DNA of 64,000 nt from a virus (lineage: Duplodnaviria; Heunggongvirae; Uroviricota; Caudoviricetes): IMG/VR virus record IMGVR_UViG_3300001528_000192, positions 1 through 64,000 of that record; one strand, given 5' to 3'. Of the stretch, positions 30,720 through 61,907 are shown in pieces (within the stretch, counting starts at the first letter, position 1; each line of letters starts with the position of its first letter). The position numbers and the translations under genes were made by a program. The notes below the pieces were generated by a model. That model made no database searches and was not told where the DNA came from. It saw nothing but the letters and a program-made list of their open reading frames with translations.

Positions 30720-30793
30720 TATCTTCCCAATTTGCTAGAAAGCCTATTCACATAGACTTCCTAGCTTGCGTATCATGCCTACAAAACAAAGTG

Positions 30794-30868
30794 TCCAAGG
30801 CACAGGACTCGAACCTGTAACCTAGAGTTTAGGAAACTCTTGCTCTGGTCCAATTGAGCTAGCCGTGG
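30794..30868 (-). tRNA. tRNA-Arg (anticodon CCT)
   Basis: The D-arm is GCTCAATTGGACCAGAGC. The anticodon arm is AGAGT TTCCTAA ACTCT. The T-loop is TTCGAGT. The acceptor has one C-T mismatch. Confidence 0.65.
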
Positions 30869-31009
30869 ATGGATTCGAGTATAGTATTGGACGTGCAAAC
30901 TATCATACTCTATACTCTAATAATACATTGAGTTATCAGGCATACCCGTGGATTGCACCGCTACCTCTAACAACTCCCAGATTAAGCGTCTGGTACTCTC
31001 CATTATTTG

Positions 31010-31081
31010 CGGTCTATAAGAGAGTCGAACTCTTATCCCTGCATAGACAGTGCAGTATCCTAGCCGTTGAACCAATAGACC
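31010..31081 (-). tRNA. tRNA-Asp (anticodon GTC)
   Basis: The acceptor is GGTCTAT/ATAGACC. The anticodon arm is CTGCA CTGTCTA TGCAG. The T-loop is TTCGACT. Confidence 0.65.
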
Positions 31082-31664
31082 AAAATAGACTCTACACTCA
31101 CGTGCCGAGTCTACTAACTTGATTTTTAATGAAACAAGTGATGTCCCTGTTTCAATGTAAACTATTTGACGTGGAGCCGATGGGGAACGATCCCATAACC
31201 CCCTGCTATGACACAGAAGGCAAACCAATTTGAAGCTCCTAATCTCTATGAAATTATTCTTTTTGTTTTCTATATACTCTACTACTTTCTTTATTAAGTC
31301 TTCCATAAGTCTCCGTGAGAGAATGACAGTTAGGGCATAACAACTAAAGGTTCTCTTCAGAGTTATTCACACAGTTCCCATCAATATGGTGAATCTATAG
31401 TGGAACTAGTCCCGACGTTGGATTAACTTCATGCCATCCGCACATCTAACAGGATGAATTATACTTATCAAATAAGTATCTTCTGATATGATTGCTTACA
31501 TCATATTTGCCTTTCCTTCCATCCTCTTGACCATTTTTCCATCTCTCTATATACTACTTGTGCTGATATTCTATCTAACAAGACTAACTACAATATTTGT
31601 TCTTAGACTTGCCACCTGTTAGTTCTCTTCCACAGTTTATACAAGTTCTCATAGTGGAGCCTGA

Positions 31665-34353: not shown

Positions 34354-34647
34354 AGAATCTTACCTTCCTAGCAAGGATTTATTAATGTCTAGGTAAAATT
34401 ACAGTCTTTGACTGCCAGTCAGAATACTTTTCAGGAGAGCTACTATTATTCACTCTATAAGTATACGAAACCATAAACACTTGTGGGAGTAATACGAATT
34501 GAACGTATTTTGGTCCTATTCGATAACACACTAGTTGTTTCTTTCTTTACCTTATCACCTGTCCTACACATTCGCGACTGTATAGGTAACTCCCAAGTTC
34601 ACCTTTTTATTTAATTGAGAGGTGTAACTCAACTCTTTTAGGAATGC

Positions 34648-34950
34648 CTACTTCTTAGCCATCTTTTCAAAAGCCTCTTTGAAAAGTCTATCAACATCTT
34701 CCTTGGTAGGATTCTTCATCTCTTTCACTTTCTTCTCGATTTCTGGAAGTTTAGAGACCATTTTCTTCATTTGCATGTGGATTGTAACATGCCCTGCCAA
34801 TACTGATGCGATAACTGCAGCTTTGATCTCATCAGGAAGTTCCTTAACGTTCTTCTCAAAGCTATCATGATCACAGCTAAATCCCATTGCCACAGTTGAG
34901 ATTGCCTTATCTACAATCTCGAAACTGTACATTTTGTTTCCTTTTTCCAT
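34648..34950 (-). CDS. Hypothetical protein
   Basis: 100-aa ORF with a T-run immediately upstream of the start on the plus strand. Confidence 0.5.
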   Translation of the reverse strand: MEKGNKMYSFEIVDKAISTVAMGFSCDHDSFEKNVKELPDEIKAAVIASVLAGHVTIHMQMKKMVSKLPEIEKKVKEMKNPTKEDVDRLFKEAFEKMAKK

Positions 34951-35333: not shown

Positions 35334-35452
35334 TCTAATTTTAGAAGGTCCGAATCTGAAATAACTAGATCCAGACTCATTCTCTTTAATGAATGAATCT
35401 TTGTCTAGTCTTAAGAGATATTTCTCTATTTTTTTTTTAGCTCCATAACCTT

Positions 35453-35692
35453 CTAAATTACGATAACTACTATCTCAATCTCTAGAACTTTAGGAAGTTG
35501 AACGTAGGATTGATCGATTGCTTTCAAGAGCATTGATGCAGCTTTAGCTGCCATCTTCTCTCCAGACTCTATAGCATCTATTGCCACATTACTTACAAAC
35601 TCTTTAGCCTCTTCTTTAGAAAGAGTGCCGAGTACTGATTCTCCGTCTGTGAAGAACTCAACTCCGTTTGAACATGCAAAAATCTTTTTCAT
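35453..35692 (-). CDS. Hypothetical protein
   Basis: 79-aa ORF. Confidence 0.45.
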   Translation of the reverse strand: MKKIFACSNGVEFFTDGESVLGTLSKEEAKEFVSNVAIDAIESGEKMAAKAASMLLKAIDQSYVQLPKVLEIEIVVIVI

Positions 35693-35724
35693 TTTCTTAT
35701 TGTTTTATTGTTAATAACTGGAGA

Positions 35725-35798
35725 CTATCTGGGAGTCGAACCCAGGTGACTTAGCCATAGGCACAGTATCCTAACCGTTAGATGAATAGTCTCAAAGG
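35725..35798 (-). other. tRNA-like element with good acceptor and T-arm but no canonical anticodon arm
   Basis: The sense sequence is AGACTAT...GATACTGTGCCTATGGCTAAGTCACC-TGGG TTCGACT CCCA-ATAGTCT. No 5-bp stem with a 7-nt loop could be found in the anticodon region. Confidence 0.25.
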
Positions 35799-38473: not shown

Positions 38474-39415
38474 TTGTATATGTTAAAATTTAAAACTACG
38501 GATAAAAAATTAGAATTATTGTTGCGGGCAATTTGTGCTTATGAAGTAAATGGAGAAGCTAATTTCTCTATGAAATGTTTAGATTTTTTCGGTAGTGAAA
38601 ATACCATAAGAAGAAATATAGAAAAATTAGAGAATTTATTAACTGAAGACGGAAAACCTATACTAATTAAAACGAATATGAACGGAATGTATTCAAGATA
38701 TAAATTAAATAAAATTTTAATTTGCCCAGAATTTGTGTATAAAGATTTTCCAGTTCAATACAAAATAATTTTACTGTCCTTATATGATAAGGAACTACCA
38801 GAAATACTTACAGTTAGTAATGTAAGTAAATTAACAGGACTTAATTATAACACAGTGAAAAAATATTTTAAAGATTCTCTAAAAGATGATTTATTAAACA
38901 ATTCTTCGGAAATAAAGAAAAGTTTGGATGGAGCTTTAGAAAATACATCATTTGGATTAATGTATGTAGGGGCAAGAAAAGAAATTTTCAAATGTAAATG
39001 TTGTGGCACTACAGATATACATAGATTTTATGCTTATAATCATAGTACATGCATTAAATGCCTAAATGCCAAAAGAGCTGAGAATTTAAAAACAGATATT
39101 GCTAGAAAATTATATAATAATTCTCAGCACTCTTATAATGCTAGAAAAAACATTGCAGGTTATAATTTAACTGTAGAATACATTCAAGAATTACTAGATA
39201 ACCAAAATTATAAATGCTATTATACAAATGTAGGCTTAAAAATTGGGTCAAAATTAACGAATCCTACATTAGATAGAATAGATTCAAATAAAGGGTATAT
39301 TAAAGGTAATGTTGTTATTTGTACAGAAATAGCAAATATTATGAAAAACGATTTAACTATAGATGAGTTTAAAGAACAAATAAAACTATTATGCACTAAC
39401 ATGAACAATTTCTAA
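38474..39415 (+). CDS. Very AT-rich gene on the opposite strand: zinc-ribbon plus HNH-like C-terminal domain protein (possible homing endonuclease)
   Basis: The protein contains CKCCGTTDIHRFYAYNHSTCIKCLN and LDRIDSNKGYIKGNVVICTEIANIMKN. It uses the standard code. It is the only plus-strand gene within the first 43 kb. Confidence 0.55.
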   Translation: MYMLKFKTTDKKLELLLRAICAYEVNGEANFSMKCLDFFGSENTIRRNIEKLENLLTEDGKPILIKTNMNGMYSRYKLNKILICPEFVYKDFPVQYKIILLSLYDKELPEILTVSNVSKLTGLNYNTVKKYFKDSLKDDLLNNSSEIKKSLDGALENTSFGLMYVGARKEIFKCKCCGTTDIHRFYAYNHSTCIKCLNAKRAENLKTDIARKLYNNSQHSYNARKNIAGYNLTVEYIQELLDNQNYKCYYTNVGLKIGSKLTNPTLDRIDSNKGYIKGNVVICTEIANIMKNDLTIDEFKEQIKLLCTNMNNF

Positions 39416-39449
39416 AGGAGTCTAATTTTTAGACTCCTTTTCCTATTGA

Positions 39450-39471
39450 GGGGGGGGGGATAAAAAAAAAA
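39450..39471. repeat. Homopolymer pair G10 then A10
   Basis: The sequence gag gggggggggg a t aaaaaaaaaa lies between the AT-rich plus-strand gene and the following minus-strand gene. Confidence 0.7.
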
Positions 39472-39482
39472 GCTAACCCAGA

Positions 39483-39746
39483 TTACTCTGGATCAGCTTC
39501 AAATGATTCAATTGTTTCCTTAAAGTCTTTAGTTTGTTCTGGATTGCCAGAATGATCTCTAACAGATAAGATATTAAGTGCATCTTCAAAATTAATATAG
39601 AATTGTTCATCTGTTAGCTTTAGTCTCTCTGCCTCATCAGCAGCTAAGGTAGCCATGTGTAATGCAGCTTGACACATAGTCCAAACTCGATTCTTTTCAT
39701 TTGGAAATCTACCTGATTTAATCAATTTCATTAGTTCACTTCTCAT
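39483..39746 (-). CDS. Hypothetical protein
   Basis: 87-aa ORF. Confidence 0.45.
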   Translation of the reverse strand: MRSELMKLIKSGRFPNEKNRVWTMCQAALHMATLAADEAERLKLTDEQFYINFEDALNILSVRDHSGNPEQTKDFKETIESFEADPE

Positions 39747-39763
39747 AGTACATATTTAATTAG

Positions 39764-39835
39764 TCGCCCCACTCAGACTCGAACTGAGACGTGCGGTTTT
39801 AGAGACCGCTGTGCTAACCATTACACCATAGAGCA
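39764..39835 (-). tRNA. Amber suppressor tRNA, anticodon CTA (reads UAG); tRNA-Gln-like body
   Basis: The sense sequence is TGCTCTA TG GTGT AATGGTTA GCAC A GCGGT CTCTAAA ACCGC ACGT CTCAG TTCGAGT CTGAG TGGGGCG A. The 5-bp anticodon stem pairs perfectly and the 7-nt loop CU-CUA-AA puts CUA at positions 34-36. The D-arm TGGTGTAATGGT is almost identical to that of tRNA-Gln(TTG) at 29860-29930. Confidence 0.8.
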
Positions 39836-39875
39836 ATAAGAGCTACTTTTTAAAAGGAGTAGCTAACCTTAAAAA

Positions 39876-40316
39876 TTAAAACTTTTCATAAAGTTCAACC
39901 ATATCTTGAATTTTATGTTGTAGATGCAAACAAATAACATCAGTAGAAATGTCAATCATTTCTTCTACTTCCTGTGCTTGGTCTGCATCAAACTTCTCCA
40001 AATCAAGAAGCTTATTAAACTTATTTAGATCAAGTTTAGATTTGAGTTCTTCTACTACTTCTACAAAGGTAGTATCATCAAGTGCTTTAATATTGTCTTT
40101 GTAGTCTTTAACAATTTCTTTGGTATCAGAATCATCAAATTCTCCATTACATTCAGGAACGTTTGCTTCTATCTCTATTTTAAGATGTCCATTATCTTTT
40201 TCTAAACGACATTTTAAATCATCACTTTCAAATGTCTCTACAGTTCCGTCTGGAATACATAAACCTAATATATTCGTGAGGTCTGGAAGTTCATTAAAAT
40301 TAATAGTTTTATCCAT
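39876..40316 (-). CDS. Acidic hypothetical protein
   Basis: 146 aa, rich in Asp and Glu. Confidence 0.5.
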   Translation of the reverse strand: MDKTINFNELPDLTNILGLCIPDGTVETFESDDLKCRLEKDNGHLKIEIEANVPECNGEFDDSDTKEIVKDYKDNIKALDDTTFVEVVEELKSKLDLNKFNKLLDLEKFDADQAQEVEEMIDISTDVICLHLQHKIQDMVELYEKF

Positions 40317-40394
40317 GATTTTTATTCCTTTTGATTACATAGCAAATATATATTCTCCTTCTAAAAATCAAAAATGGAATATTGTTAAAAACTA

Positions 40395-41275
40395 TTAAGA
40401 TTTAAACTTACCTCCATTTTTAAGAGTAAATCCCTAACTAGTCCAACTTGGGACAGTCTAAAGGTTGAAATCTAATAGTTTGGGTTTCCTAAAGAAAGTT
40501 AATCCAACGTTACCAGGAGATACATCATCAACTACTATACTTCCATTGGTATATGCTCTATATTGTACGTTAGGATCGTTAACTTTTCTAAAGCCACTCT
40601 TCTACATAGCCTTATCTAACTTATCTACATATTTTGGAAAAGTTTTCTCACTGAGAACTTTCACCTTTTTCTAAATGAAAGTTGGAAATCTTCTAGTCCC
40701 ATCCTTCACATAGCCTACAAACTTTAGAGGGAGAGAGTTTGGAACTGCATTTCTCTTTAACATTTCACCGCTGCCAACCTAAGTTATTTTTCCCACAGTA
40801 GTAGGAGAGTTTCTTATTACAAGGGCTTCAGAACCCTATCCTATTTTATAAGGGGTTAAAGTAGATAACTTACCAACTGTAGCCCGCCTAGTAACAGCCG
40901 GAAGAACACCTTTAAAGGAACTTACAGGTCCTGCAGTTATAAGAGAAGTTCCTATGTTCTTTACATTATCTTTAGCATAATTAAAATTGGACTATATCTT
41001 CTACTAGTCTTCTTCCTTAGAAGGGTCATAATGAGTTTGGCGTCCAAATATTCCATATCCAAAGAAATTGTTATTGTAGAAGTTCTACATATTCTAGTAA
41101 TACTTAGCTTTATCTGCATCATAGATTACTGCTTGATTCTTTCTAGCAGCCTCCTACAATTTTCTCTATTTAATTCTATCTTGCTATTCTTTAGTAAGTT
41201 GGAATGCCATTGGTTGACCTCTAACAACTCTTGTATTATCCTATACTGCAATCCCACCTCTCTAAAACTTAATCA
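40395..41275 (-). CDS. TAG-recoded gene, hypothetical protein (about 293 aa, about 17 in-frame TAG)
   Basis: ATG at 41275 (MIKF[Q]RGGIAV[Q]DNTRVV...) runs to TAA at 40395-40397. The translation is coherent only when TAG is read through. Its start overlaps the stop of the upstream small membrane protein gene. Confidence 0.5.
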
Positions 41276-41490
41276 TGCATTTTACCTTTCCAAATTCCAG
41301 TTACTGAATCTATACCTAATAATAAGCATACTGCATATATAAAAGGTTCTATCATTAGAGGGGCCTGAATAGAAGATATAGTACAATAGACTAATACAAA
41401 GATGATAATAAGGAATCCGATTACCCCACAAACTCTCTTACTACTAATACCAGAGTGTGAGGTAATCATCAGTCTAAGAAAATCCTTCAT
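41269..41490 (-). CDS. Small membrane protein (holin-like, 2-3 transmembrane helices), no TAG
   Basis: 73 aa, reading ...VCGVIGFLIIIFVLVYCTISSIQAPLMIEPFIYAVCLLLGIDSV. Confidence 0.45.
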   Translation of the reverse strand: MKDFLRLMITSHSGISSKRVCGVIGFLIIIFVLVYCTISSIQAPLMIEPFIYAVCLLLGIDSVTGIWKGKMHD

Positions 41491-41522
41491 AAAATTAAAA
41501 GTATAATTATTACCTAGAGTAG

Positions 41523-41714
41523 CTATCCTATAGCTCCACCTATCATAGTAGCTGCTATGTCTAGCCAGTCAAACTTACCTCCATACTGTTTATCTTTAAA
41601 TTCCATTCCAAATGCACATCCTAATACAGCTAGTATAGTAAATACTAACCCAATAGGAATTGCATATAAAAGATGTTTCGGACGATTACTTTCTTTCAAC
41701 CACATATTATGCAA
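41523..41714 (-). CDS. Small membrane protein (holin-like), no TAG
   Basis: The protein reads ...LLYAIPIGLVFTILAVLGCAFGMEF...WLDIAATMIGGAIG, which gives two transmembrane helices. Confidence 0.45.
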   Translation of the reverse strand: MHNMWLKESNRPKHLLYAIPIGLVFTILAVLGCAFGMEFKDKQYGGKFDWLDIAATMIGGAIG

Positions 41715-42819
41715 AATTTAATTTATTTCCGAAGAACCAATTAGCCTCCAATTGTCTTCTCTTTATAAGTCCTTTCTATATCTTACCATTACCTCTTGCT
41801 GTAATACCTGCCCTAATCCACTTATTATAAATAGCTTGAGGATTATTCCAGTTCTGAACAATAAATCTTCCAAACTCTCCATTTGGGCTAGCCCAATTAC
41901 CAGAGGCTGATATAGAAGATAATGCATCTATTTTATCCTAAGTTACATTAGGTAATCCTGCTAGCACCTGTTTCCATTCTTCAGCCTTCTTATTATAGAA
42001 GGCATTAAAGATGTTGTCCCATCTTTCTTTAGAAAACCTAGTACCTGCCTTTATAGGTGGAGCCCCCGGTTTATCAAATTCTCTAGTCATGCCATATGCA
42101 CCAGTAGCAAAAGATTCTCCAAACTATGTATTCACTTTAGCAGTTTGGGATCCCCCTTCCATCCTTTTAATTTGGGAAGCCATCTGCTAAGATATACCAT
42201 TAGCGAATGTACTAATGCCGTTGGTAACCCCTCCCAAGATTCGTCTAATACTTTTGATTTCTAAGTTAGGAAGGGGTCTTTCTACTATTCCTAACTTCTT
42301 TCCAGCAGCATCTATAATATATATCTATCCGCTCTCTATTCTACTTATAAGTCCTATGTGCTATCCACTAGGACTATTCTTACTTCCAAACCAGATTACA
42401 TCTCCAGGCTTAGCCTATTGAAGACTAATTTCCTAACCTATCTTACCCTACTGAGCAGCAGTCCTAGGTAGATTAATTCCTACACTATTAAAGACATACT
42501 TTATAAGACCACTACAATCAAACCCAGAACTTGGACTAGAACCTCCCCAACTATATTTACCTCCTAAGAATTGTCTCGCTTGGTTAATTACCTACTAAGC
42601 CATAGAAGAGCTATTCTCAGATTTAGAAGGAGAATAACTGAAGGTAGGTTCTTGTATATCCTACTAAGGAGTATCTAGGAAACTCCAATCTATGCCGGAA
42701 TCTTCTACGTCCTAAGTAGGCTATTGCATTAATTGTATTTCCTGATAATTCTACTATACATCAGGGGTAATTATGTCTGGAGGAGATACAGATTCAAATG
42801 TTGTAAATAATTCAGCCAT
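41706..42819 (-). CDS. TAG-recoded NlpC/P60-family cell-wall peptidase (endolysin-like)
   Basis: With TAG=Q the protein reads ...QFLGGKYSWGGSSPSSGFDCSGLIKYVFNSVGINLPRTAA[Q][Q]GKIG...PGDVIWFG...[Q]HIGLI, the NlpC/P60 Cys/His core. The two consecutive TAG codons sit where the family has Gln-Gln. The end coordinate is approximate because my manual frame count is off by one somewhere. Confidence 0.55.
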
Positions 42820-42821
42820 TA

Positions 42822-43646
42822 TTAAAATTTATATAATCCATTTATAATATCACTAAATAATATATGAGGAATTTCGGGATTTTCCTAATCAAGAATAGAT
42901 TTATAGGAAGTCGCTAATTTCTTTCCATACGGATTCTCATATGAATCATTTATTAAGATGTGACTAATATTTCCTTCTGGCTATCTCATGTCCCTAACAA
43001 TAATAAATGGTCCATCAGAATAAAAACCACCAGGTGCAGCAGTACTAGTTTTATCCCCGATTAAACTGCTAGAGTAAAAAGGTCTGGTAGTATCGTATCC
43101 ATGCTTATTCATCATCCTAGCAACAGCTAAGGCTTCTGAATCTCCCTATTTAGACATGCCGTGTCCTACATAGTGTAATGGAACTCTCTACCTTTCAAGA
43201 GCCTGCTTCAGAAATTCTCCCTGCATAAACCTATCATCTTTATTTATACCTCTTCTAAAATCTAGCATATTTTTAGGAGATATTTTAGTTCGGTCAATAA
43301 ATCCCTATAATACTTTCAAATACTCCCCCTTTGGCACTAATTTAATTGCTTTTATAACTCCTCCTAGCTGGTGTTTCCAAGTTCTGGCATTAGCAGCAAA
43401 TGTAGCTCTTTTCCTAATCTTAGGATCAGAACTATTTTTTCCCCTCTAAATGCAGACATCAGTTACATTTCCCCCACAGTACTCTGTAAATTTACCTCTA
43501 TTCTATTTTTTAATATGTATCTTATGTCCTTTCTTGTAAAGCTCAATTGGATCTGAATAATTCTCTAACTTTAAAGGGAGATTAAGCTAAGAAGTATCCT
43601 TGAAAAACTAAGAAAACTCTGTTAATTGATTCTAGGTATATTTCAT
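42822..43646 (-). CDS. TAG-recoded gene, alpha/beta-hydrolase-like protein
   Basis: ATG at 43646 (MKYT[Q]NQLTEFS...) to TAA at 42822-42824 is exactly 275 codons. It contains HYVGHGMSK[Q]GDSEALAVA, a G-H-x-x-S nucleophile-elbow-like motif, and about 14 TAG. Confidence 0.45.
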
Positions 43647-43814
43647 ATTAGATTTTGTTAAAAGTAACACATACTTTATTTGAGTATTCAAATTTAATAT
43701 TTATATTTGTATAATTGAAATGAATATAACTCATAAGTTAAATAGAAAATTCCACGTATAAATATATTTGTACAAACTCAAGGACTAACAGATTAACTAT
43801 ATAATATCTAACAA
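43647..43814. promoter_or_regulatory. AT-rich divergent intergenic region (probable divergent promoters for the minus-strand lysis cassette and the plus-strand late module)
   Basis: A 168-bp gap of roughly 80% A+T lies between the divergently oriented genes starting at 43646 (minus) and 43815 (plus). Confidence 0.3.
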
Positions 43815-44057
43815 ATGAGTTACAAAACAAACTTAAATTCTAGACTACTTGTTGCTCTTACTTTAACAATAGTAGGAAGTGGTCTGTTAATTGCTGGATT
43901 CATGGTTCCTCCTTTGGGAATAATCGATGGTTCAGTTTTAGTAGCATTCGGAGAGACTAGTACATTTGTCGCTGCGTTGCTTGGAATAGATTACAATTAC
44001 AAATACCAGATGTACAAAAACAAAGTCCTTTCAGGATTCAGTGGAAATGGGAAATGA
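43815..44057 (+). CDS. Small membrane protein
   Basis: 80 aa, reading LLVALTLTIVGSGLLIAGFMVPPLGIIDGSVLVAFG. Confidence 0.45.
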   Translation: MSYKTNLNSRLLVALTLTIVGSGLLIAGFMVPPLGIIDGSVLVAFGETSTFVAALLGIDYNYKYQMYKNKVLSGFSGNGK

Positions 44058-44087
44058 AATAATGAAATAAACTAAATAAAGTGTAAT

Positions 44088-44957
44088 ATGAAAATTGATA
44101 AGCAGAATGGAACAGTTGCGTTCAATGACCAAGAGCATATCTATTGGAATGTAAATGATAATAAAAGATATGTCTCAGTTACTACTCTAATTCACAGATA
44201 TACTCAAGAATTTGATAAGGAATTTTGGTCTTCTTATAAGGCTTTGGAAAAATTACTTCCAAAGAAGTCGTGGGAAATAGAAAAGAAGTCTCTATTAAAT
44301 ACTAAGAAGTTCAATAAGGAATTGTTAAGTTTATATGATATAGACGAGAATGATTTCAATGCAGTTCAGCAAGGCATCTTAGATGCTTGGGATGAGGAGA
44401 ACAGGAAATCATGTGAAAGAGGAACTAAGATACACTCAGAGATAGAAAACTCCTTTTACGACCACCCAACAGATATTTCTTTAAAGAAGTTTGGTTTGGG
44501 AGGAAAATTTGAGTGTAAGAAAGACTACTCGGAATTAGATTTAGAGCATGGAGTGTATCCAGAGTATTTGATATATAGGGAGTCAGACGATGGGATCTTA
44601 CGAATAGCAGGACAGGTGGATCTTATAATTAAGTCAGGAAATGAAATAACAATTGTAGACCACAAGACGAATAAGAAAATTGATCAAAAGTCTGGATTCA
44701 ATACAATTACTAAATCAAATGCTAAGATGAAGTATCCATTGAATAATCTAATGGATTGTAATTTTTATCATTACACTTTACAACTCTCCACTTATGCTTG
44801 GATGCTTCAAAAGATAAATCCAAACTTTATAATTAAAGATTTGATTTTAAATCACTATGACCATAATGGAAATAATACCTTATATCATTGTGAATATCTA
44901 AAGCATGATGTAGAGAAAATGTTATATCATTATAAGAAGAGTCTCATTTTGGAATAG
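44088..44957 (+). CDS. PD-(D/E)XK exonuclease-like protein (YqaJ/Cas4-like fold), standard code
   Basis: 289 aa. GQVDLIIKSGNEITIVDHKT supplies a D...D-x-K motif. It has no in-frame TAG. Confidence 0.55.
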   Translation: MKIDKQNGTVAFNDQEHIYWNVNDNKRYVSVTTLIHRYTQEFDKEFWSSYKALEKLLPKKSWEIEKKSLLNTKKFNKELLSLYDIDENDFNAVQQGILDAWDEENRKSCERGTKIHSEIENSFYDHPTDISLKKFGLGGKFECKKDYSELDLEHGVYPEYLIYRESDDGILRIAGQVDLIIKSGNEITIVDHKTNKKIDQKSGFNTITKSNAKMKYPLNNLMDCNFYHYTLQLSTYAWMLQKINPNFIIKDLILNHYDHNGNNTLYHCEYLKHDVEKMLYHYKKSLILE

Positions 44958-45158
44958 AAAAGAAATGCAAGAAAAAGAATAGAATATTAATCATTGTTAA
45001 GGGCATATTGAATCCCAATCTTGGATTAAATGTCAACACTATATACTAAAACAGTCTATTCTTTTTCTTTTTATTTTTAGATTATGAATGTATTTGATAT
45101 TATCAATGGTCATGCAAAAGAAGTCCTTAACCTTAACTAGGACTTAAGTAGTAATAGA

Positions 45159-46198: not shown

Positions 46199-47572
46199 AT
46201 GGCTAATAATTGGAAGTATGGGGATTCCTACTTTGATGGGAACTCTTATAAAACAAGAGCATAGGCGTTTGCTGCTGCTAGGAAAAGTGGTAGAGGAGTA
46301 TTTACTTATAAGGGAAAGCAATATAATACAATGTAGAAAGGGGAAAATGCTGATGACTTTAGAAGGAATCATGCAGACTACGACTATTTCCTTGGAAATG
46401 TTGCTAGTGACTAGGGAGGATGGAAACCTTCTGATCCAGTTCAAACTTCTTATAAAGTAAATAATGTTCCAGAACCTATGAATCCAGACGCCTCACCAAA
46501 ATCTGGACAGTTAGGAGAGGCTGTAGTTACAGCTCAGAAGCAGCCACTACAAATGTTTACAAAAGATGATATTAGATCTCTAGGATTTAATAATTACTAG
46601 GGATTACTTAATGCAGTAAGCAATAGAAATAATTGGAACAATAATTTCGTAAAGGCTCTAAATAATAGATTTGGAACTGATTATGCTAACTGGAAGCAGG
46701 AAGACATAGAAAATGCATTAGGAGTGAAGGGAAAGTATAGATCATTTGGGGGAGGAGACTTTGGAGATATGTCTCGCAGTATGGCAAGCTGGATGGGAAC
46801 ATACAATGGAAATCTCGAAAGGAAAAATCTGCAAGATAGAACTGGATCAGACGGGATAGTCTATTCCAATAAACAAGTAAGAGATCTATTTGAAGCACAT
46901 CCTGTAAAGCCTAAAACATTTACTTTTGACACTAATTCCTTTGGAACTAATCTATTTGGAACGCCAAAGAAATAGTAGGGAGGACAAATTAATATGAATG
47001 AACAACAATTACAATAGGCATTTCTATAGTATCTGATGTAGAAGACTGGAGCTCAAAATGAGCAGCAACTAGAACAAGTTGTTTAGCAGTTGGGTGAAGA
47101 TGGATTGAAACAAGCATACGCTCAATTCATGCAAGAAATGCAGCAATAGCAAGTTCAAGCTGCCAAGTTTGGAGCTAAACTAAATTACATTAAGAAACTT
47201 AATGGACAATGCCCTGAAGGAATGGAAATGCACTATTATAAGCAGGGAGGTAGGCTTTGCAGGAAATGTATGCAGGCTAAACAAAATGGAGGAGAACTAG
47301 AAACACCTTCTAATCCTATTGATGCCTTTAAATGTGGAAGAAAAATTAAAAAGAATCAACAGGGAAGAAAATTTCCTTTGATTGAAACTGACAAGAATGG
47401 AAAGAATAAGAAGGTCTATTATAAGGATGAGGCAACTAGAGATTCTATTGCAGCAAATCGTTACAATGATCAGGAAGTGCAAGTAAATAGACCTGGCTCT
47501 TACAAGAAGAATGCAAAGGGCAAGGTTCAATGGACTCCTGATAGAACCAAGGCACCTTATAAGAGAGACTAA
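46199..47572 (+). CDS. TAG-recoded Gln-rich protein with a C-terminal zinc ribbon
   Basis: ORF-track fragments 46724..46975 and 47222..47572 share the frame of the ATG at 46199. Reading TAG=Q gives ...NEQQLQQAFLQYLMQ...QFMQEMQQQQVQAAKF...CPEGMEMHYYKQGGRLCRKC. Many Gln residues are TAG-encoded, interleaved with CAA/CAG. Confidence 0.5.
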
Positions 47573-47698
47573 TCTTACATAGGAATGAATATGAATTAAT
47601 GAATTATGGTTTAGGATATATTTGTTTACAACAATCAACTCAATAGAGTTGATCTAAATACACATGAAATACTTCTGGTCAAAGAGTTTAAAGCTCTT

Positions 47699-48193
47699 TT
47701 GGAACCAAATAGAAATAAATGCAAAGAAGACCCAAGTGGATTAATGGGTCTTCGTGCATTTAGAGAGTTCACTTATATATGGCTTGCCATATGTTGGAAG
47801 TCTGTGTATAGTGAATATGATGAACAGGTTAGGCACCAAGAGTCCCTAAAGGATGCAAACTTAACAGAAGAGGAATTTAATAATCCAGAATTTAGAGCAG
47901 CATGTAGGAAGTTTAGGCAGATATAGGAGTCTAATCTTTCCATTAAAATGCTACATGCTGCACAGGAAACTGTTAACAAGTTTATAGAATACTTTAATTC
48001 AGTAGATCCTTTAGAGAGAGATGAGTAGACTGGAAAACCAGTATATAAAGTTAAAGATATTATGGCTGAACTAAGTTCTTTAGGAAAGGTTCATGACGAA
48101 CTTGTTGACTTGGAGAGTAGAGTTAAGAAGGAGTTAACTGAACAATCTTCCGTTCGAGGAGGGGCTATAGATGGATATCAACCTAACTTTTAA
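47699..48193 (+). CDS. TAG-recoded hypothetical protein (possible small terminase position)
   Basis: MEPNRNKCKEDPSG... continues through two TAG to TAA at 48191-48193. It lies immediately upstream of the large terminase gene. Confidence 0.4.
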
Positions 48194-50463
48194 TGGTTAT
48201 GGAAGAAGTTAAAAGGAAAAGAGGACGACCTAAAAAGGTTAAACTCCCAGAGGAAATAAAGACTTTGGTACAAGAAGTTAAGCAAGAATAGAAACCAGAC
48301 TTAATTAAAGTAGAGGAATCTGTTCCAGAACCAGAAAAATCTTCAGAGTGGGACGTTCCAAAGGGGGAATATATAAAATTCTTCGATAAAAGGCTTTCTT
48401 ATGAGCTAACAGGCTATAAACCAATTACTGAAACTTAGGGGTTGGATTTTGATCCAAGTTGGTTCACCGTTGCAAGGGATACCTACATAAGAACTGGAAA
48501 GTATTGTAGCTATAGAATATACAGTAAACCTTATAATGATTTCTGGCATGAAGAATACCGTAGATGTCGAGAAGGGTATACTGTAAATGGATATACTTTA
48601 ACTGGTCCAAACTATTATTACCTCAACTACTATCAACTTCCTAATATTGATGTTGAAATAGCAGGTAGTGGACGTAGTTAGATATTTCCTAAGTTCTTGG
48701 TATTTCAGTATGAGTTCTTTCACTACTTTGAGATATGTAGAAGGGAGAAAAAGGATGTATGTTTAATGAAGTCCCGTGGTATTGGATTTAGTGAAATAAA
48801 TGCTGCCATTTGTGCATGCATTTACAATTGCTTCAGAAATAGTAAGTGTATGATTACCACGAGTTTATCTAACTATTTGGAGAAATCTCTTGATAAGGTA
48901 TGGAATGCACTTAGTTTCGCAAATGAACATACTTAGGGAGGACTTGCTAAACTTCGCCAGGCTAAGGACACATAGTTCTTAAAAAGAGCATCTACTTTAG
49001 TAAAGGATTCAAATGGTATAACATCTGAAACTGGATGGATGTCTTAGATTGAAGGAGTAGTAGCTGAGACTGATGCTAAGATAAGAGGCGACCGTATTGA
49101 TTTACTAGTATATGAAGAGGCTGGTTCTAATTCAGTCTTAAGAAAATCATACATTAAGGGAAAAGCCCTTATATATATTGGAGGTACTAAGTTTGGAATT
49201 AGACTTGCGGGAGGTACTGGTGGAGATAAAGGTGCAGCTTTATAGGGACTTAGAGATATATACTATGACCCAAATGGATTTGACGTCCTTCCGTTTTATC
49301 ATAATTATACAGAGGGTGGAGAATGGGTTTATACTGGATACTTTATTCCATCATACATAGGTGCTATTACAGAGTACGGTACTGATATTAACGGAGTAAG
49401 ACGACAATTACTCGATAAAAGAGGCTATTGCTTATGGAAGAATTATAAGGAGTAGCTAGATTTGGATAGGGCTAACCTTTCCTCTAATCCTAGAGCATTA
49501 ATTGATCACTCTGCTGAGTATTGTTACACAGCAGAAGAAGCGTTTGCTTTGGAAGGTGATAACAAATTCAATAAAGTAAATATTGCTGAATAGCTTACAA
49601 ATATACGTGCATTGAAGAAATGTCCCCCTATAGAAAGAGGTTATATTGAATATAAATTCAAGGATGGAGCCCATGTTTAGTAGAATATAGATGGCTTCAA
49701 GTGGATTCCTAATTAGAGTAGTAAACTCTAGATATTAGAACACCCAATATGGACTTTGCCCCCAGTTGAGGACGAGAACGGAAAAGTAACTTGGAGACCT
49801 CCTACTGAAAAAGTTAGAAATTTATATGTAATAGGAATAGATGGTATTGATATAGGCGCAGCCCAAACTTCTGAAGCTACAAAGGATCCATCAGACTTTT
49901 GCCTTGTTGTTTACAAGAGAGCATATGGAATGGAGGAACCAAAATTTGTAGCACTTTATAAGGATAGACCTAATGATGTTAGGGAATGCTATAAGATAGC
50001 TATTAAACTAGCATAGTATTATAATGCTGTTATAAATATAGAGGCAACCAGATAGAGTATAATCCCATATGCGAGAGAGAGAAAGCTTCTTAATCTCTTT
50101 ATGAAGAGACCTAGGGCTACTCTTGCAGACTCTGCTAGGAATACTAATAAACAGTATGGAACTCCAGCAACTCCAGCAATTATAGATCATCAAACAGATT
50201 TAATAGCTGATTATATAAATGACTATTGTCACCTTATATGGTTTGATGAAATGCTTGATGAGTTCAATAGGTATACTGATGAGAATAAGAAGAAATTTGA
50301 TATTGTTGCAGCAACAGCAATGGCTTTGTTAGCAGATGAGGAATTGCAAGGAACAGTACCTAAAGTTGTAGAGGAAGTCAAGGATACCTGGCAAGATATA
50401 GGATTTTACACAGATGAATATGGAAGAAGGCGCTATGGAACACTCCCAAAACACGCTTCTTAG
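48193..50463 (+). CDS. terL: TAG-recoded terminase large subunit
   Basis: Five ORF-track fragments (48442.., 48697.., 49756.., 50101.., all with start%3==1) fuse with the ATG at 48193 when TAG is read through, about 13 TAG in total. Motifs are KSRGIGFSE (a deviant Walker A typical of terminases), DLLVYEEAG (Walker B) and VIGIDGIDIGA...DPSDFCLVVY (the RNase-H-like nuclease domain). Confidence 0.7.
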
Positions 50464-50494
50464 ATACGATTTAATAATAATTTTGGATAGTTAT

Positions 50495-50803
50495 ATGACG
50501 ACTTAGGACCTAGAACAAGTAATACAAGACTATATTCTGGATATTTATCATAAGAAATATATAGGTAGAATGGTCATAGAGAAACTAAATCCAGTAGGAT
50601 ACTGCATTAAGCTAGGGATGGATCATGATCACTAGCCAATAGTTATTTACGCAGAACTAGAGGATGATAAGTTTCTTAAATTCCTCAGGCAAGAACTTAA
50701 GGATAGGCGTTTCAACCTAGTATACTATGGTAAACTATAGTTAACTTACCCATATGATTGTAATCCAATAAATACAGCATGTAGTTGTCATGACAAAGGA
50801 TGA
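50495..50803 (+). CDS. Small TAG-recoded hypothetical protein
   Basis: MTT[Q]DLEQVIQDYILDIYHKKYIGRMVIEKLNPVGYCIKLGMDHDH[Q]PIVIY...CSCHDKG ends with TGA at 50801. Confidence 0.3.
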
Positions 50804-52970
50804 ATTAATAGAGAAAACGGACAAGGCAATATCTGAACTAGTCTACCCTAAATATGATTTATAGAAAGCATATAACTACTATAATGGTGTAAGAGATTCA
50901 GACTAGTTCAGATACCTAGAGGAAGTGTATGGAGCAAATGCTCCAACTACATTACATTTCACCCCTTTAATAAAGAAACATATTGATGCCCTTATAGGAG
51001 AGTACTTAGGAACTCCTATAATTCCAAAAATATTTTGTAAGGACAGTGAAACAATAACCAATATAGATAGAGAGAAGCAATTAAAGATCGCTTCTGAACT
51101 CCATGAGTATTTGAAGAATCATCTTAGAAATTCTGTTCTCAACTTTATAGATGGAAAGAATATCAATGATGGTCTTATTGAGTAGCAACTGAAGAGAATA
51201 GTGGAAGATATAAATAATACATTTGTATCAGAATATGAGATTGCTGCATAGAACGTAATAGAATATATTATGCAATCTAGAGATACTGATATCATTACAG
51301 TATTAAGAGATCTTCTTCTAGATCTTTTAATTACTGGATATGCCTTTTATAGAGTTCTACCTACAGTAGAAAATAATAGCATTAGAATCTAGGCTCTAAG
51401 CCCATTAAATACTTTCATTGATAGAAACTTTGAATCTCCATATATTAAAAACTCTTATAGAGTTGTTGTAAGAAGCTGGATGACTAAAAACCAAATCCTA
51501 AATGAATATGGTAAAGAAATGAAAGCATCTGATAGAAAACTTTTAGATGAAAAGTGGGATTCTGTTTACGAAAATGCTATGTACTACGTCAGAATGGGGG
51601 AAACCAATGGTATTCCAAATACAGACGGTGTTCAAGCTGGAGTAGAAGTTACTCCTGGCTATCCTGATAGTAAGTCCGGACTAACTCATGAACTTATCCC
51701 CGTTTACGAAGTAGAATGGTTAGAAACTGACAAAGATTTCATAATGCAGAGATATAGAACAGTTAGAATTGGAGAACAAATCTATATACTTAGGGGGAAG
51801 GATGAAAAAGTTATGAGAACTAAATCTAATCCTTCTTACTGCAGTCTCTCTGTTAATGGTATATATTTTTTGAATAGAGGAACGAAACCTTATTCAATGG
51901 TTCTAGCCTGTGCTCACCTCCAAGATTAGTATGATCTTCTGAACTTTTATAGAGACAACCTTATTGCTAATAGTGGTACAGTAGGGGACTGGATTGATTT
52001 AACATTAATTCCTGCTGAGCTAGGTGTAAATCTTCCAGAACGACTTATAAAGTGGTAGGCTCTGAAGAAACAAGGGCTAGGAGTTCTTGATTCCTCTTAG
52101 GAGGGACGATTGGCTTCTGGGCAAGCTCCATTAAATACTATTTTTAATGGTTTTGATAATACTGTTAAAATGTAGGCTGTTCAAGCTATATAGGTAGCAA
52201 TAGATGCTATAGAGCAAACTACCTCCTCTATTACTGGAGTCTTTAGAGAAAGGCTTAATGGTATTGAGTAGAGAGATGCTGTGACTAATGTTAAAATTGG
52301 ATAGAACAACTCATTTATTATAACTAAATAGTATTATCACTAGATGGACTTAATAGTAAATGAGATGCTATTAGACTGTTTAAATCTTGCCAAAGTTGTA
52401 TTCAAGAATGGATTAACTGGAACTATTATACTAGGAGATAAGTATCAAAGAGTATTTACTGCTCTTCCTGAATATTTTACAATAACTGATCATGATATTA
52501 GGATTGTTACTAGTACTGATATTGTGAAGGATTTGGAACAAATAAAGAATATTATTCCTGAATTTGTTAAATCTGGCGGTCTCCCTCCCGACATTATTAT
52601 TGAAGCCATAACTAGCAAGAGCTTACCAGATCTTAAGTACAAGGTAAGAAAAGCTATGCAAATCTAGAAGGATGAAAATAATTAGATGTAGCAACTAAAT
52701 TAGCAAAATTAGTAGCTCTAGTAGTAGCTCTAGGAAATGTAGAAACAGTTACAGGAGGCTCAGAAGAAAGTAGAATCTCTTAATCAAACTAAACTACAGC
52801 TTGAACAAAAGCAGCTTGAATAGAATTATAAGATTGAAATGTATAAGGCTAATACAGATAGGTCTTATAAGGAGGCTACTGTTGAGGAGTAGAAAAGAAG
52901 AACTTAGGTTGAAATAGCGCAGTTAACAGATGGGAATCCTTACAATGATAAAATTAGACAAATTGATTAA
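50790..52970 (+). CDS. TAG-recoded large virion protein, portal-like by position, with a TAG-dense Gln-rich C-terminal tail
   Basis: Fragments 50925.., 51480.. and 52344.. (all %3==0) join from the ATG at 50790 to TAA at 52968-52970, about 726 aa. The assignment as portal rests only on its position after terL and its size. Confidence 0.4.
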
Positions 52971-53686
52971 TGGAACTGAAAATTAAAATAATTACTTGTA
53001 ACGCCTGTGATAATTGTAAGGTTACTGTGCAAGACAATAGCACTTATTTATCAGAGGATAACATAGGAACTGTTAAGGGAAAATTTAAATTCTCCGATAC
53101 AGTGTCTATAGATATACTTTAGCTAAACAAGTCTTAGGAATCTGTATACTTGAACCCTACATTTACTGATCATTCTTCGTTGAATAATTCTACCTTATAG
53201 GTATCTTCTGATGGATGGTATAGTCTAGTTCATATTGTACTTCCCTCTAAGGAATGGTTTAATAGAGAATTAGAAAAACAAGACGGTTCTGCTCTAGGAT
53301 TGTATAATATAGTATACTTTGCAAGCGATAATAAAGTATATAAATATATAAATGGCAGTACATCAGAAGTTGATTTATCTGAAGTACTAGAAGTAAATCC
53401 TGTAAATACAACAATTTCGAAAACATCAGAAGACTTTGTATCTATTTGTTTTTTACGAAAATGTTATATAAATTTGTGCAAGCAAATTCTAAACGATAGA
53501 GGATTCTCCTCTTGTTGGAATAAAAATAAGATAGATAGTGAATTAATATATAAAAGAGATCTAGTCTGGATGGCAATTAATGTCATAAAATATCTCACAG
53601 AGTGTGAACAGCTTGCGGAAGTTGAGAGACTAGTTGAGATAATTAATGGATGTAATGGCTTATGCTCTTCGTCTAGCTCTTCTTAG
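52970..53686 (+). CDS. TAG-recoded hypothetical protein
   Basis: MELKIKIITCNACDNCKV... runs through three TAG into ORF-track 53300..53686. Confidence 0.4.
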
Positions 53687-53890
53687 AATAGTAGTGGATG
53701 TGGATGCTCTAAATAATTTAAAGAAAAAGGTATCTGAGGAATTTTTCTAGCTCATGTGTAAAGTTAGAAAAGGATACAAACCAGACTATGAATTTATATT
53801 AGAAGAGATTTCTTTTATAGACCTAATAAAGAATAGGGAAATAGATGATAAATTATCTTTAACTGCATTATAGTACTATTTAAATAACAA

Positions 53891-55690
53891 ATGGCAGATA
53901 ATTCAATCTTAACTCCAGGATGCTAGGATACCATAGACACTCCTACAACTGTTGATGAATCTGTTCAATATTTAGAGAAGGATAACTTCCTATCTGAGTA
54001 TGAAAATGAATCAGAGAAATCAGTAGTAAGGGAAAATCTAAATGTGTATCCAAAGAATGCAGTATATACCAAGGATGAAACTGATGCCAACATTGCTACA
54101 ACAGTAACAACTGCTGTCAATAAGCATCTTAGTGTTGAGGATCCTCATGGAACCTTGGATACTGTAAGAGAGATGATTGCAGACATGGCTAAAACAGATG
54201 GAAGTACTCCATTTACATCTCCTCAAGTTGGAGTTGAGCCTGTTTCTGATAGTCATCTAACAACAAAGAAATTTGTAACTAGATTATTAAATGAGCATAC
54301 TAGATTAGTTGGGTCTGATGATCCACATAAAATATTGCCAGAGGTAGAAACTATTTTAGAAAAATATGTTAAGTCCTCTGATGTGTTTACTAAGTCCTAG
54401 CTTTATACAAAGCAAGACGTAGATAATTTGTTAAAAGCTTTCTTAAAGAAAGACGGAAGTACTCCATTTACTATCGCTCAGATAGGAGTTGACCCAACTA
54501 TAGATAGTCATCTAGCCACCAAGCGGTATGTAGACAAGACTCTCTACGCCCACTTGGTAGATGTTGACCCTCATGGTTTCTTAACTATATTAAATCAAAG
54601 ATTAGCTTCTTATGCCAAGATAGCTAATGTATATGATAAGACTCAAACATATTCTAGAAGTCAAATTGACGCATTTATCAACAAATGGGTTCAAGAAGCC
54701 GTAGCAGAAGCTATTGCAGAATATATGGAGACAGTTGATGATAGATTTGAGTCTATACGTCAAGACAGATATGTTAAGCAAGATGGATCAGTTCCATTTA
54801 GAAACCCTCAAGCGGGTGTTGATGCTATTGAGCCAGAACATCTAGTAACTTTAAAGTAGGTGGAAGATAGGACTTCTGAAATAAAGGAGGACTTAGAATC
54901 TAAAATATAGGACAAGGAATGTTTATGGATTACATCTGGTCCAGTAGAATCCACAGTCGGGCATGTTGAAGATAATACTCCTATGCCTGCTACTATGACA
55001 TTACAGGAAGTATGTGATGCTATATTCTATGGCAAAGGTATTTGCATGGAGGTACCAGACTATGTAGTTATAACTAAGAAATGTCCTGTTACTCTATGTA
55101 TTCATGGATCAACTGGTTTGGTATAGGTTGCTCAACTCTTCCAAAATGGAAAGTTAATTTATACCTTTACTGGTGATGATTTCAAGGATGGATGTATAAC
55201 TGTAGACAGCGAACCTCTTCTAGAGGATGCCGAATTTGTATTCAGAGTAACTTATACAAATGGTTCTGTCCACGAGGAAACTGCTACAGTAAAGTGCTAT
55301 ATGCCTGTATTTGTTGGATTACTCCCTAAGTGGAAAACAGGAAGTACAATTACTATGGATTATTTAATCCAGTTATGTGAGGAGGATACAGAAGGAACAT
55401 AGAATCGATTCATAAACTATGGAGGAGACTTGAAATCCTTTACATTTAAGTATGTATTCTCAGATGCTTCCCTTCGTCATCCATTCATTGTACTCCCAGA
55501 GGCATATCCAAATCTAGACACCATGGTAACTAAGTCATAGAGTTTTGGAATTGATGCTTTCGATGTAATTAACAATATTCCTCTATCCGTACCAGGAGTG
55601 GAAAAAGATATTATATTTAAAGTATATATTTATAGGTAGGCTTTAGCTACCCTTAACTAGGAAGTAACATTTAATTTTGAAAGTAAATGA
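53891..55690 (+). CDS. TAG-recoded structural protein with three tandem ~45-aa repeats
   Basis: The ATG at 53891 joins fragments 54044..54400 and 54428..54859 (%3==2) and ends with TGA at 55688-55690. The repeats read DGSTPFTSPQVGVEPVSDSHLTTKKFV, then DGSTPFTIAQIGVDPTIDSHLATKRYV, then DGSVPFRNPQAGVDAIEPEHLVT. Confidence 0.45.
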
Positions 55691-61906: not shown

Positions 61907-61907
61907 T

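Follow-up and report, generated by a model that had tools for sequence, protein, structure and literature searches.

Does the uneven distribution of in-frame TAG codons at this phage locus control lysis? We analysed a window of 64,000 nucleotides (positions 1 to 64,000 of the IMG/VR record IMGVR_UViG_3300001528_000192), in which two enzyme-like genes full of TAG are followed by two genes for small membrane proteins. The initial annotation read the locus as a lysis cassette: the holin-like genes, being TAG-free, could be expressed whichever code was in use, but the murein hydrolases would need suppression, which might guard against premature lysis. We found instead that the recoded cluster is one more case of an already known stop-codon recoding, in what is probably an ordinary late operon. 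All cluster genes lie on the minus strand, in the order hyd, pep, s1, s2, down, a TAG-free gene and the suppressor tRNA(CTA):

42822..43646, minus strand: hyd, 274 aa with 10 in-frame TAG, a conserved N-terminal module and a lineage-variable C-terminal domain
43359..43547, minus strand: basic module at the N-terminus of hyd (aa 34-96); its two Cys are invariant, and crAss001 gp45 has the homologous stretch at residues 369-430
41707..42819, minus strand: pep, two-domain wall-degrading enzyme of 370 aa with 17 in-frame TAG
42235..42612, minus strand: cysteine peptidase domain of NlpC/P60 type in pep (aa 70-195), with Cys102 and His154 invariant
41710..42201, minus strand: probable lysozyme-fold domain at the C-terminus of pep (aa 207-370)
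41487..41705, minus strand: s1, two-helix membrane protein of 72 aa, phrog_38535
41269..41490, minus strand: s2, two-helix membrane protein of 73 aa with a short charged C-terminus
40395..41276, minus strand: down, 293 aa with 16 TAG, its start overlapping the end of s2 by 8 nt
40343..40372, minus strand: promoter-like motif of Bacteroides type (TTTG..TAnnTTTG), preceding both the TAG-free gene for 146 aa and the suppressor tRNA, whose expression it may drive
39876..40316, minus strand: TAG-free gene for an acidic protein of 146 aa, syntenic in relatives
39763-39835, minus strand: suppressor tRNA with anticodon CTA, at the same position in L005, L007 and L009
39469..39500, minus strand: terminator-like hairpin, the only one in 39400-44200

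The gene positions first proposed agree with this list, except for the end of s1 and its probable start, and the description of pep and hyd as TAG-rich is borne out by their 17 and 10 in-frame TAG.

The window derives from a crAss-like (Crassvirales) gut phage of roughly 140-178 kb that reads TAG as Gln. Code 15 was supported by the coding density and the TAG map of the window, by the phage-encoded tRNA(CTA), syntenic in three relatives, and by in-frame TAG that align with Gln codons of relatives in pep and s1. In the cluster, 45 of the 72 Gln codons were TAG, whereas the structural block had 94 TAG among its 259 (Fisher p = 8e-5). When 24 kb were searched by megablast against an annotated phage collection, no close relative was retrieved, and the matches were short, gene-level ones to crAss-like phages. 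The genome L016 is 85.6% identical across positions 51649-61645 of the window, and it encodes an Amidase_3 endolysin (phrog_435, E = 3.5e-47) with 6 TAG about 8 kb past the homologue of the window end, as part of a spanin-like cassette. Neither Amidase_3 nor gp30-like genes were found in the window itself.

The product of pep is a real wall-degrading enzyme that combines an NlpC/P60 peptidase and a probable lysozyme fold. Translated under code 15, it matched the Pfam NLPC_P60 profile (PF00877) over aa 86-159 with a score of 71.6 bits (E = 5.9e-20), above the cut-off of 23, as the initial annotation had anticipated, and PDB profile matches of this domain reached 4e-21. Cys102, within a DCSG motif, and His154 were invariant among 18 homologues. 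Structure work was done on the database homologues P0121 and P0001, where the NlpC/P60 domain was modelled with a pLDDT of 80-89. For the C-terminal domain, the match to Pfam Phage_lysozyme (GH24, PF00959) stayed under the cut-off (14.8 bits vs. 22.3, E = 0.038), and PHROG_7 'endolysin' was matched at 1.8e-6. Its fold resembled the phage FAHEc1 endolysin 7m5i (Foldseek E = 2.5e-5, TM 0.66; model pLDDT only 60-84), and Glu221 was invariant in homologues. Many relatives carry Phage_lysozyme2 (PF18013) in place of this domain, which represents a domain swap.

At the codon level, the 17 TAG sites of pep corresponded in four relatives to TAG 20 times, to CAA or CAG 18 times and to another codon 28 times. 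A consecutive TAG pair had been placed where the peptidase family has Gln-Gln; this holds for the doublet at aa 22-23 only, and pep has three such doublets (aa 22-23, 52-53 and 75-76), all outside the Pfam NlpC/P60 match.

The reading of s1 changes with the code. Under the standard code it stops at a TAG; under code 15 it passes the TAG codons at 41523-41525 and 41514-41516 and ends at the TGA at 41487-41489, which overlaps the ATG of s2 in an ATGA arrangement kept in all four genomes. The true start of s1 is probably the ATG at 41705. Both TAG codons lie inside helix 2, and the second hydrophobic segment is present only with read-through. Before the code switch, these codons could truncate the protein to one helix, and the two-helix form would follow once the code had changed. 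The protein matches phrog_38535 as far as residue 69, and its family is annotated in crAss002 as 'VanZ-like lipoprotein'. Homologues of s1 showed no recurrent adjacency to lysis genes: crAss002 gp9 lies between the large terminase and portal genes, the cr116_1 homologue lies among tRNA genes, and in the early regions of 37-kb Bacteroides phages the homologue is the C-terminus of a 148-aa protein. The holin-like character that had been assigned to both small proteins is retained as probable for s2, from its gene context, but not for s1.

We suggest that s2 is probably a holin, judging from its gene context in other phages. Its hydrophobic segments (residues 20-38 and about 45-63) and its C-terminus KGKMHD give it the architecture of small holins. 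The family has 112 representatives and recurrently adjoins endolysin or spanin genes (L027, L029/L030, L031, L032 and L015). The s2 gene follows a Glucosaminidase gene in L027, and SLT and Phage_lysozyme2 genes in L029 and L030; it stands between a crAss001-gp30-like enzyme and a u-spanin-like gene in L031, and in L032 a u-spanin-like gene lies two genes downstream. Its neighbours in L008 and L027 are PG-binding proteins and glycine-rich membrane proteins resembling ejection proteins. None of 97 family members matched a curated holin family in Pfam, PHROGs or NCBIfam, and 12 of the 97 matched phrog_1322 'membrane protein'. The s2 profile showed no similarity to crAss001 gp28 and gp29. Class II holins such as S21 are two-helix proteins, and s2 resembles them in its length of about 70 aa, its two hydrophobic helices, its short charged C-terminus and its position near wall-degrading genes, but differs in lying outside every curated holin family searched. 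No paralogues of s1, s2 or the hyd module were found elsewhere in the window.

Could s1 be a standard-code gene that ends at its TAG, the next 12 codons being a spacer with a backup stop? Several early genes of the window do have such an ending: in the TAG-free block, about nine genes terminate at a TAG that is followed, 1-12 codons further on, by TAA or TGA. For s1, we consider this very unlikely: the amino acids of the extension are conserved in four genomes, with L005, L007 and L009 as the relatives, and the first TAG is replaced by CAA or CAG in these three. Moreover, standard-code homologues run through the same positions, so that the extension aligns to their helix 2 (cr116_1 has Gln at both sites), and helix 2 would be cut to about 10 residues without it. 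The two TAG within helix 2 of s1 in turn weigh against the proposed guard against early lysis, since the claim that both small genes are TAG-free stands for s2, with zero TAG, but fails for s1. In its favour, s2 lacks TAG both in the window and in L007, and the per-codon chance of finding zero TAG in 133 codons is 0.002. Against this, the absence of TAG is not beyond chance, because each small gene has only one Gln codon of the CAA/CAG type, a CAG in s2. TAG represents 63% of the Gln codons of hyd, pep and down together, and, given the Gln content, the probability of no TAG is 0.37 for s2 alone and 0.14 for both small genes. Homologues of s2 usually carry in-frame recoded stops (seven of nine recoded lineages), with 1-2 TAG in L005, L008, L009, L015 and L026; in L029/L030 and L035/L036, which recode TGA, they have 2-4 TGA. 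Besides, the holin sets the timing of lysis and is lethal alone, whereas the endolysin accumulates harmlessly (work of the Young lab); therefore, an ungated, TAG-free holin would offer no protection against early lysis. Altogether, we find the opposition of TAG-free holins and TAG-rich hydrolases, and the guard built on it, barely credible.

For hyd, sequence comparison indicates a polymorphic family in which a gp45-type module is joined to interchangeable C-terminal domains. The module is 49% identical to residues 369-430 of gp45 (E = 4e-23, tblastn and BLASTP), and both Cys are common to the two proteins. Across 26 family members with differing C-termini, 36 module columns are invariant, and this stretch of about 60 residues occurs with no fewer than six C-termini that are unrelated to one another, ART-PolyVal being one. 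The two halves of hyd are encoded as separate genes in L008, the C-terminal domain is missing in L007, and one member has an extra inserted segment. The AlphaFold model of hyd had a mean pLDDT of 52, too low for a fold search. The former label of alpha/beta-hydrolase finds no support, as hyd had no profile match in Pfam or PHROG and no GxSxG motif.

Iyer and colleagues reportedly described, in 2017, phage proteins of polyvalent or polymorphic type, in which effector domains can be exchanged. The hyd family resembles these in having one conserved module with many unrelated C-termini, including the ART-PolyVal one, but its members are short (100-410 aa) and mostly have one variable domain, and are not giant multi-domain proteins. 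The other likeness, through the module and its two Cys, is to the crAss001 cargo protein C1, gp45 (PMC10172136; crAss_CARG1, PF25725). In contrast to gp45, hyd has neither the N-terminal transmembrane region nor the barrel-bound helix, and it carries an unrelated C-terminal domain of 170 aa. The CARG1 portal-binding domain is matched by gp45 at 2.3e-66, whereas hyd has no match to it in Pfam.

For the whole locus we favour, at somewhat better than even odds, the explanation of an ordinary late operon in a crAss-like phage with TAG as a Gln codon, whose products are gated by suppression. It builds on TAG positions, TAG/Gln interchange in relatives, the s1 extension, domain identities and synteny, all of them observed directly. 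The products of hyd, pep, s1 and down would depend directly on suppression. As 27 TAG precede s1 and s2 in this densely packed operon, nonsense polarity and the ATGA overlap would tie their expression to suppression; s2 would probably be coupled to s1 read-through via the overlap and to upstream translation via polarity. All cluster proteins depend on suppression, or are indistinguishable from genes that do. Given this dependence, full-length products would appear only once the suppressor had accumulated.

Within this late operon, the most likely role of pep and s2 would be that of a second or accessory lysis pair, with pep in a lytic role and s2 as its presumed holin. The structural module, just beyond the end of the window, probably encodes the amidase-type endolysin of the phage, as the comparison with L016 suggests. 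Several observations count against a lysis pair: s2 belongs to no curated holin family and takes its role from context, and it stands beside ejection-like proteins in L008 and L027; the hyd module is common to a virion cargo protein; and the lysis genes of crAss001 sit inside the structural module, not at this position. In addition, pep is atypical as an endolysin for a Gram-negative host, with 370 aa, two catalytic domains and a disordered but conserved N-terminus of 69 residues, and its NlpC/P60 domain scored best with tail-protein PHROGs and the diffocin hub hydrolase.

A rival reading is that the cluster encodes virion-packaged proteins ejected at entry and no lysis cassette: pep would open the wall from outside, and the gp45-like module would carry the members of the hyd family as injected effectors that can replace one another. 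As for s1 and s2, they would either be partners in the membrane or have no part in the process. We regard this as possible, although rather unlikely. It agrees with gp45 being a virion cargo protein (PMC10172136) in which the segment shared with hyd lies directly before the portal-bound CARG1 domain, and with the many C-termini of the module, among them ART-PolyVal, which is characteristic of injected polyvalent proteins. It agrees too with the tail-like affinities of pep, whose relatives carry the 'phage tail lysozyme' domain PF18013, with its conserved disordered N-terminus, and with the separate Amidase_3 endolysin of the close relative. However, s2 occurs in endolysin and u-spanin contexts elsewhere, and hyd lacks the CARG1 portal-binding domain. 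The fold neighbours of pep in BFVD include endolysins as well as tail lysins and so favour neither role. Two further readings, of s1 as a dual-product gene and of the two-Cys module of hyd as a virion-loading or ejection tag that packages interchangeable enzymes or effectors in large crassviruses, seem doubtful to us. If the tag were real, effectors would be injected together with the DNA, including an ADP-ribosyltransferase in one relative, and pep could be the wall opener.

The late operon that we favour has close precedents. For recoded crAss-like phages, the gating of late and lysis genes by stop codons was already proposed (Borges et al., 10.1101/2021.08.26.457843), and TAG-recoded crAss-like phages were also treated in Yutin et al. 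2021 (PMC7886860). The cluster resembles these phages in the use of TAG as Gln in late genes, the phage suppressor tRNA and the standard-code early genes, and in having wall-degrading or lysis genes among the most TAG-biased. It differs from the phages of about 105 kb in Borges et al. (10.1101/2021.08.26.457843), where the bias falls on an amidase and a spanin beside the tail tube gene. In our window, the genes rich in TAG form an operon of their own on the minus strand, which lies upstream of the structural module and diverges from it; the lineage is of roughly 140-178 kb, and the enzyme is an NlpC/P60 peptidase with a lysozyme-like domain. The lysis cassette gp27-gp30 of crAss001 (MH675552) likewise has small membrane proteins beside a peptidoglycan peptidase, and a gp30 homologue lies immediately upstream of the s2-family gene in L031. 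However, the crAss001 cassette is flanked by the tail fibre genes on one side and the major capsid gene on the other, and no homologues of gp27, gp28, gp29 or gp30 were found in the window.

Little is therefore added on recoding itself: earlier publications cover the recoding of late and lysis genes together with a phage suppressor tRNA in crAss-like phages, and what seemed new here, holins free of TAG, does not hold up. The locus carries a caution for anyone scanning recoded phages: a lack of TAG is uninformative in small hydrophobic genes, because these are nearly without Gln codons. Moreover, code-11 ORF calls can mask C-terminal read-through, which here completes a membrane helix. Two by-products are the s2 family, whose gene context in many gut phages marks it as probable holins, and the polymorphic family with the gp45-like module, which could help to explain cargo loading in crassviruses.

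Finally, down had no Pfam, PHROG or PDB match, and, of its more than 500 homologues, the 120 listed were all at least 89% identical, which gave no useful alignment. A sigma-70 promoter scan was uninformative for this Bacteroidales phage. The Bacteroides-type promoter motif matched 8 times in the window against 3.2 expected, an excess that is only suggestive.

The initial annotation proposed a safeguard against premature lysis: two TAG-free holin-like genes, readable under either code, beside TAG-rich murein hydrolases that need suppression. The observation held in part. There is partial support for its general reading, a recoded cluster that contains a wall-degrading enzyme and is probably lysis-related, but the specific claim of TAG-free holins was refuted. 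The five successive genes of the cluster (hyd, pep, s1, s2, and down) and the features around them are:

5467-6381, minus strand: PG_binding_1 domain protein of a second TAG-rich block
39763-39835, minus strand: suppressor tRNA, anticodon CTA
40343-40372: Bacteroides-type promoter-like motif (suggestive), ahead of a TAG-free 146-aa gene and the tRNA
40395-41276, minus strand: down, 16 TAG
41269-41490, minus strand: s2, small membrane protein, no recoded stop
41487-41705, minus strand: s1, small membrane protein, with read-through
41707-42819, minus strand: pep, annotated as NlpC/P60 peptidase, 370 aa, 17 TAG
42822-43646, minus strand: hyd, annotated as alpha/beta-hydrolase, 274 aa, 10 TAG
43679-43709: Bacteroides-type promoter-like motif, ahead of an 80-aa membrane protein gene
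from 44088, plus strand: block of PD-(D/E)XK exonuclease, large terminase, portal, and tail-fibre-like genes
48193-50553, plus strand: large terminase
50790-52970, plus strand: portal

The TAG richness of pep and hyd stood as annotated, positions included. Across the 64-kb window (G+C 36%), many long ORFs are seen only if TAG is a sense codon, and one of the 22 tRNA genes has the anticodon CTA. Gene-level DNA and protein matches were to Crassvirales phages of Bacteroides in every case, and the metagenomic contigs carrying relatives are 137-178 kb. The TAG-containing genes are grouped at 4194-7423 (minus), 40395-43646 (minus), and 46199-64000 (plus), with a long minus-strand block essentially without TAG between the TAG-rich groups. 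This is in line with crAss-like phages, which have late genes in an alternative code and the rest in the standard one (Yutin 2021, PMC7886860; Borges preprint, 10.1101/2021.08.26.457843). Nowhere in the window is the TAG bias stronger than in the cluster, where 45/72 Gln codons are TAG vs. 94/259 in the structural block (p = 8e-5).

As annotated (41523..41714), s1 terminates at TAG; under code 15 (TAG read as Gln), it passes two TAG and extends by QLLQVIIILLIL to a TGA overlapping the s2 ATG (ATGA). Three relatives with ~70-88% identity to the window in aligned stretches (L005, L007, and L009) keep both the extension and the overlap, and all three have CAA/CAG at the first TAG site and TAG at the second. 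Standard-code homologues (crAss002 gp9, cr116_1, and siphophage 'ORF136a-like' proteins) extend across both positions, with Gln at both in cr116_1, and the phrog_38535 match reaches residue 69. The second hydrophobic segment (54-72) exists in the read-through product only, the standard-code product having one. Since the extension is conserved, present in standard-code homologues, and completes this segment, s1 needs suppression to be complete.

Of the two small genes, s2 alone is TAG-free. With a single Gln codon in s2, and with TAG at 63% of Gln positions across hyd, pep, and down, its lack of TAG has P = 0.37. For both small genes together P is 0.14, the s1 extension ignored; the naive per-codon value of 0.002 merely reflects their hydrophobic composition. 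Moreover, s2 homologues contain in-frame recoded stops in 7/9 recoded lineages examined: two TAG in L005, L008, and L015, one in L009 and L026, and four and two TGA in the TGA-recoded phages L029/L030 and L035/L036; the window and L007 are the two without. Together with the suppression needed by s1, these results dismiss the TAG asymmetry between the holin-like genes and the hydrolases.

The whole cluster would yield full-length products only once the suppressor has built up. Earlier, stops at the 27 upstream TAG would also reduce s1 and s2 expression via polarity, and the ATGA overlap may couple s2 translation to s1 read-through. This gating of the whole cluster is the reverse of the arrangement first proposed, and the mechanism is the published late-gene gating model rather than a new safeguard. 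Novelty is low, late-gene gating being known already; the gp45-like polymorphic module family (on hyd) and the s2 family are the sole items that might merit follow-up.

Spacing is tight, with 2 nt from hyd stop to pep start, 1 nt from pep stop to the s1 ATG (41705), and an 8-nt overlap of s2 and down. Also suggestive, the minus-strand scan for Bacteroides-type promoter-like motifs found none ahead of hyd, and the sole terminator-like hairpin in 39400-44200 follows the tRNA region. The suppressor tRNA lies just downstream of the cluster in four genomes. Despite its greater overall likeness to phage tRNA-Trp (71%) than to phage tRNA-Gln (64%), codon substitutions in orthologues point to Gln.

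Aligned to the 17 pep TAG sites, the codons of four relatives are TAG in 20 cases, CAA/CAG in 18, and others in 28, these last mostly in the variable N-terminus or a non-homologous C-terminal domain; judging from these alignments, TAG is Gln in this phage. Consecutive TAG had been placed at a family Gln-Gln. Three doublets exist, all outside the Pfam NlpC/P60 match (aa 86-159), and only that at aa 22-23 falls on a conserved Gln-Gln. The peptidase assignment held (Pfam 5.9e-20; PDB profile matches down to 4e-21), with Cys102 and His154 invariant among homologues. Residues 1-69 are predicted to be disordered (pLDDT ~33). For the C-terminal domain, Pfam Phage_lysozyme scored under the cut-off, PHROG_7 'endolysin' matched at 1.8e-6, and Foldseek retrieved the phage FAHEc1 endolysin (7m5i, E = 2.5e-5). 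Pep is a predicted disordered N-terminus followed by NlpC/P60 and a C-terminal domain of probable lysozyme fold.

In many relatives (hundreds; P0010-P0120), Phage_lysozyme2 (PF18013) replaces the 41710-42201 (minus) domain, with the same N-terminus and NlpC/P60; the swap is clean, at an RRILGG junction. A small HExxH protein gene (phrog_15610 'protease', E = 1e-41), absent from the window, lies between pep and s1 in L007 (8984-9301), directly upstream of s2 in L015 (4677-4997), and ~2 kb upstream in L014 (2555-2935).

The alpha/beta-hydrolase identity of hyd found no support: the protein has no family match, lacks a GxSxG motif, and gave an unusable structure model. Residues 34-96 form a highly conserved basic module (36 invariant columns, two invariant Cys), which in relatives either stands alone or is followed by C-terminal domains of at least six unrelated kinds, ART-PolyVal among them. 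It shares 49% identity with residues 369-430 of gp45, a cargo protein of the crAss001 virion (PMC10172136); in gp45, these residues immediately precede the portal-bound CARG1 domain. A K-H-Q-L-G-G type motif recurs at the module end (window 43359-43547, minus; L005, L007, L008, L014, L015), borders an inserted domain in the homologue P0126, and occurs at N-termini of neighbouring proteins, e.g. NAAKWKHANGG (L015). Pep has a similar R-R-I-L-G-G at its domain junction. A role as linker or processing site is possible.

We lean towards a lysis-related cluster, whereas a virion/entry or cargo module appears less likely. The latter is favoured by the gp45 module on hyd, the bias of pep NlpC/P60 matches to tail proteins, the disordered, conserved N-terminus of pep, and the presence around s2 in L008 and L027 of PG-binding proteins and glycine-rich membrane proteins; fold neighbours of pep among viral proteins are mixed in this respect. 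However, the s2 contexts in L027 and L029-L032 favour lysis. The order is glucosaminidase with N-terminal membrane anchor, s2, PG_binding_1 protein in L027; SLT, Phage_lysozyme2, s2 in L029 and L030; and crAss001 endolysin gp30 homologue, s2, lipobox protein in L031. The latter's lipobox and C-terminal membrane helix make it a putative u-spanin by architecture, and in L032 another u-spanin-like gene lies downstream of s2, at a distance of two genes. Because of these wall-degrading enzymes and u-spanin-like genes, s2 is a probable holin, although curated holin models did not match its family (112 representatives, conserved SSKR..G motif). The s1 family comprises membrane proteins widespread in Bacteroides phages, in varied gene contexts that are not lysis-like.

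For a lysis-related cluster, its location differs from crAss001, where lysis genes gp27-gp30 have the tail fibre genes on one side and the major capsid gene on the other. In L016, 85.6% identical to window 51649-61645, an Amidase_3 endolysin gene (phrog_435, E = 3.5e-47; 6 TAG) lies ~8 kb past the counterpart of the window's last complete gene, and none was found within the 64-kb window. Thus, this lineage very probably has its amidase endolysin elsewhere in the genome, with pep as a second wall-degrading enzyme.

The second TAG-rich block (4194-7423, minus) codes for three proteins of low complexity, whose hydrophobic segments are rich in glycine, and adjoins a TAG-free OmpA-like protein (7729-8730, minus). 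Its counterparts directly flank s2 in L027 and L008, and the two TAG-rich blocks may be functionally linked. In down, the motifs IGQGSEALVI, DDVSPGNVG, and LLDFN loosely recall a small protein-kinase-like fold, for which Pfam, PHROG, and PDB gave no support; its N-terminus (MIKFQRGG..DNTRVVR) is similar to those of proteins after s2 in L014 and L030.

In the TAG-free block, about nine otherwise TAG-free genes stop at TAG, with TAA or TGA 1-12 codons on (examples of TAG-ended genes: 12585-13172, 23710-23919, 26713-27330, 30773-31306, 34555-34950, 35411-35692, and 44088-44990); the second stops look like a backup for genes needing termination before and after the code switch. ARAGORN called a tRNA with anticodon TTA (ochre-suppressor-like) at 16238-16309 of L007; its window homologue (35720-35793, minus), which gave no tRNA call, retains the acceptor arm and the D and T arms, but its anticodon arm differs. 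Finally, the 80-aa membrane protein gene (43815-44057, plus) is TAG-free, divergent from the cluster, and kept in L005, L007, and L008.
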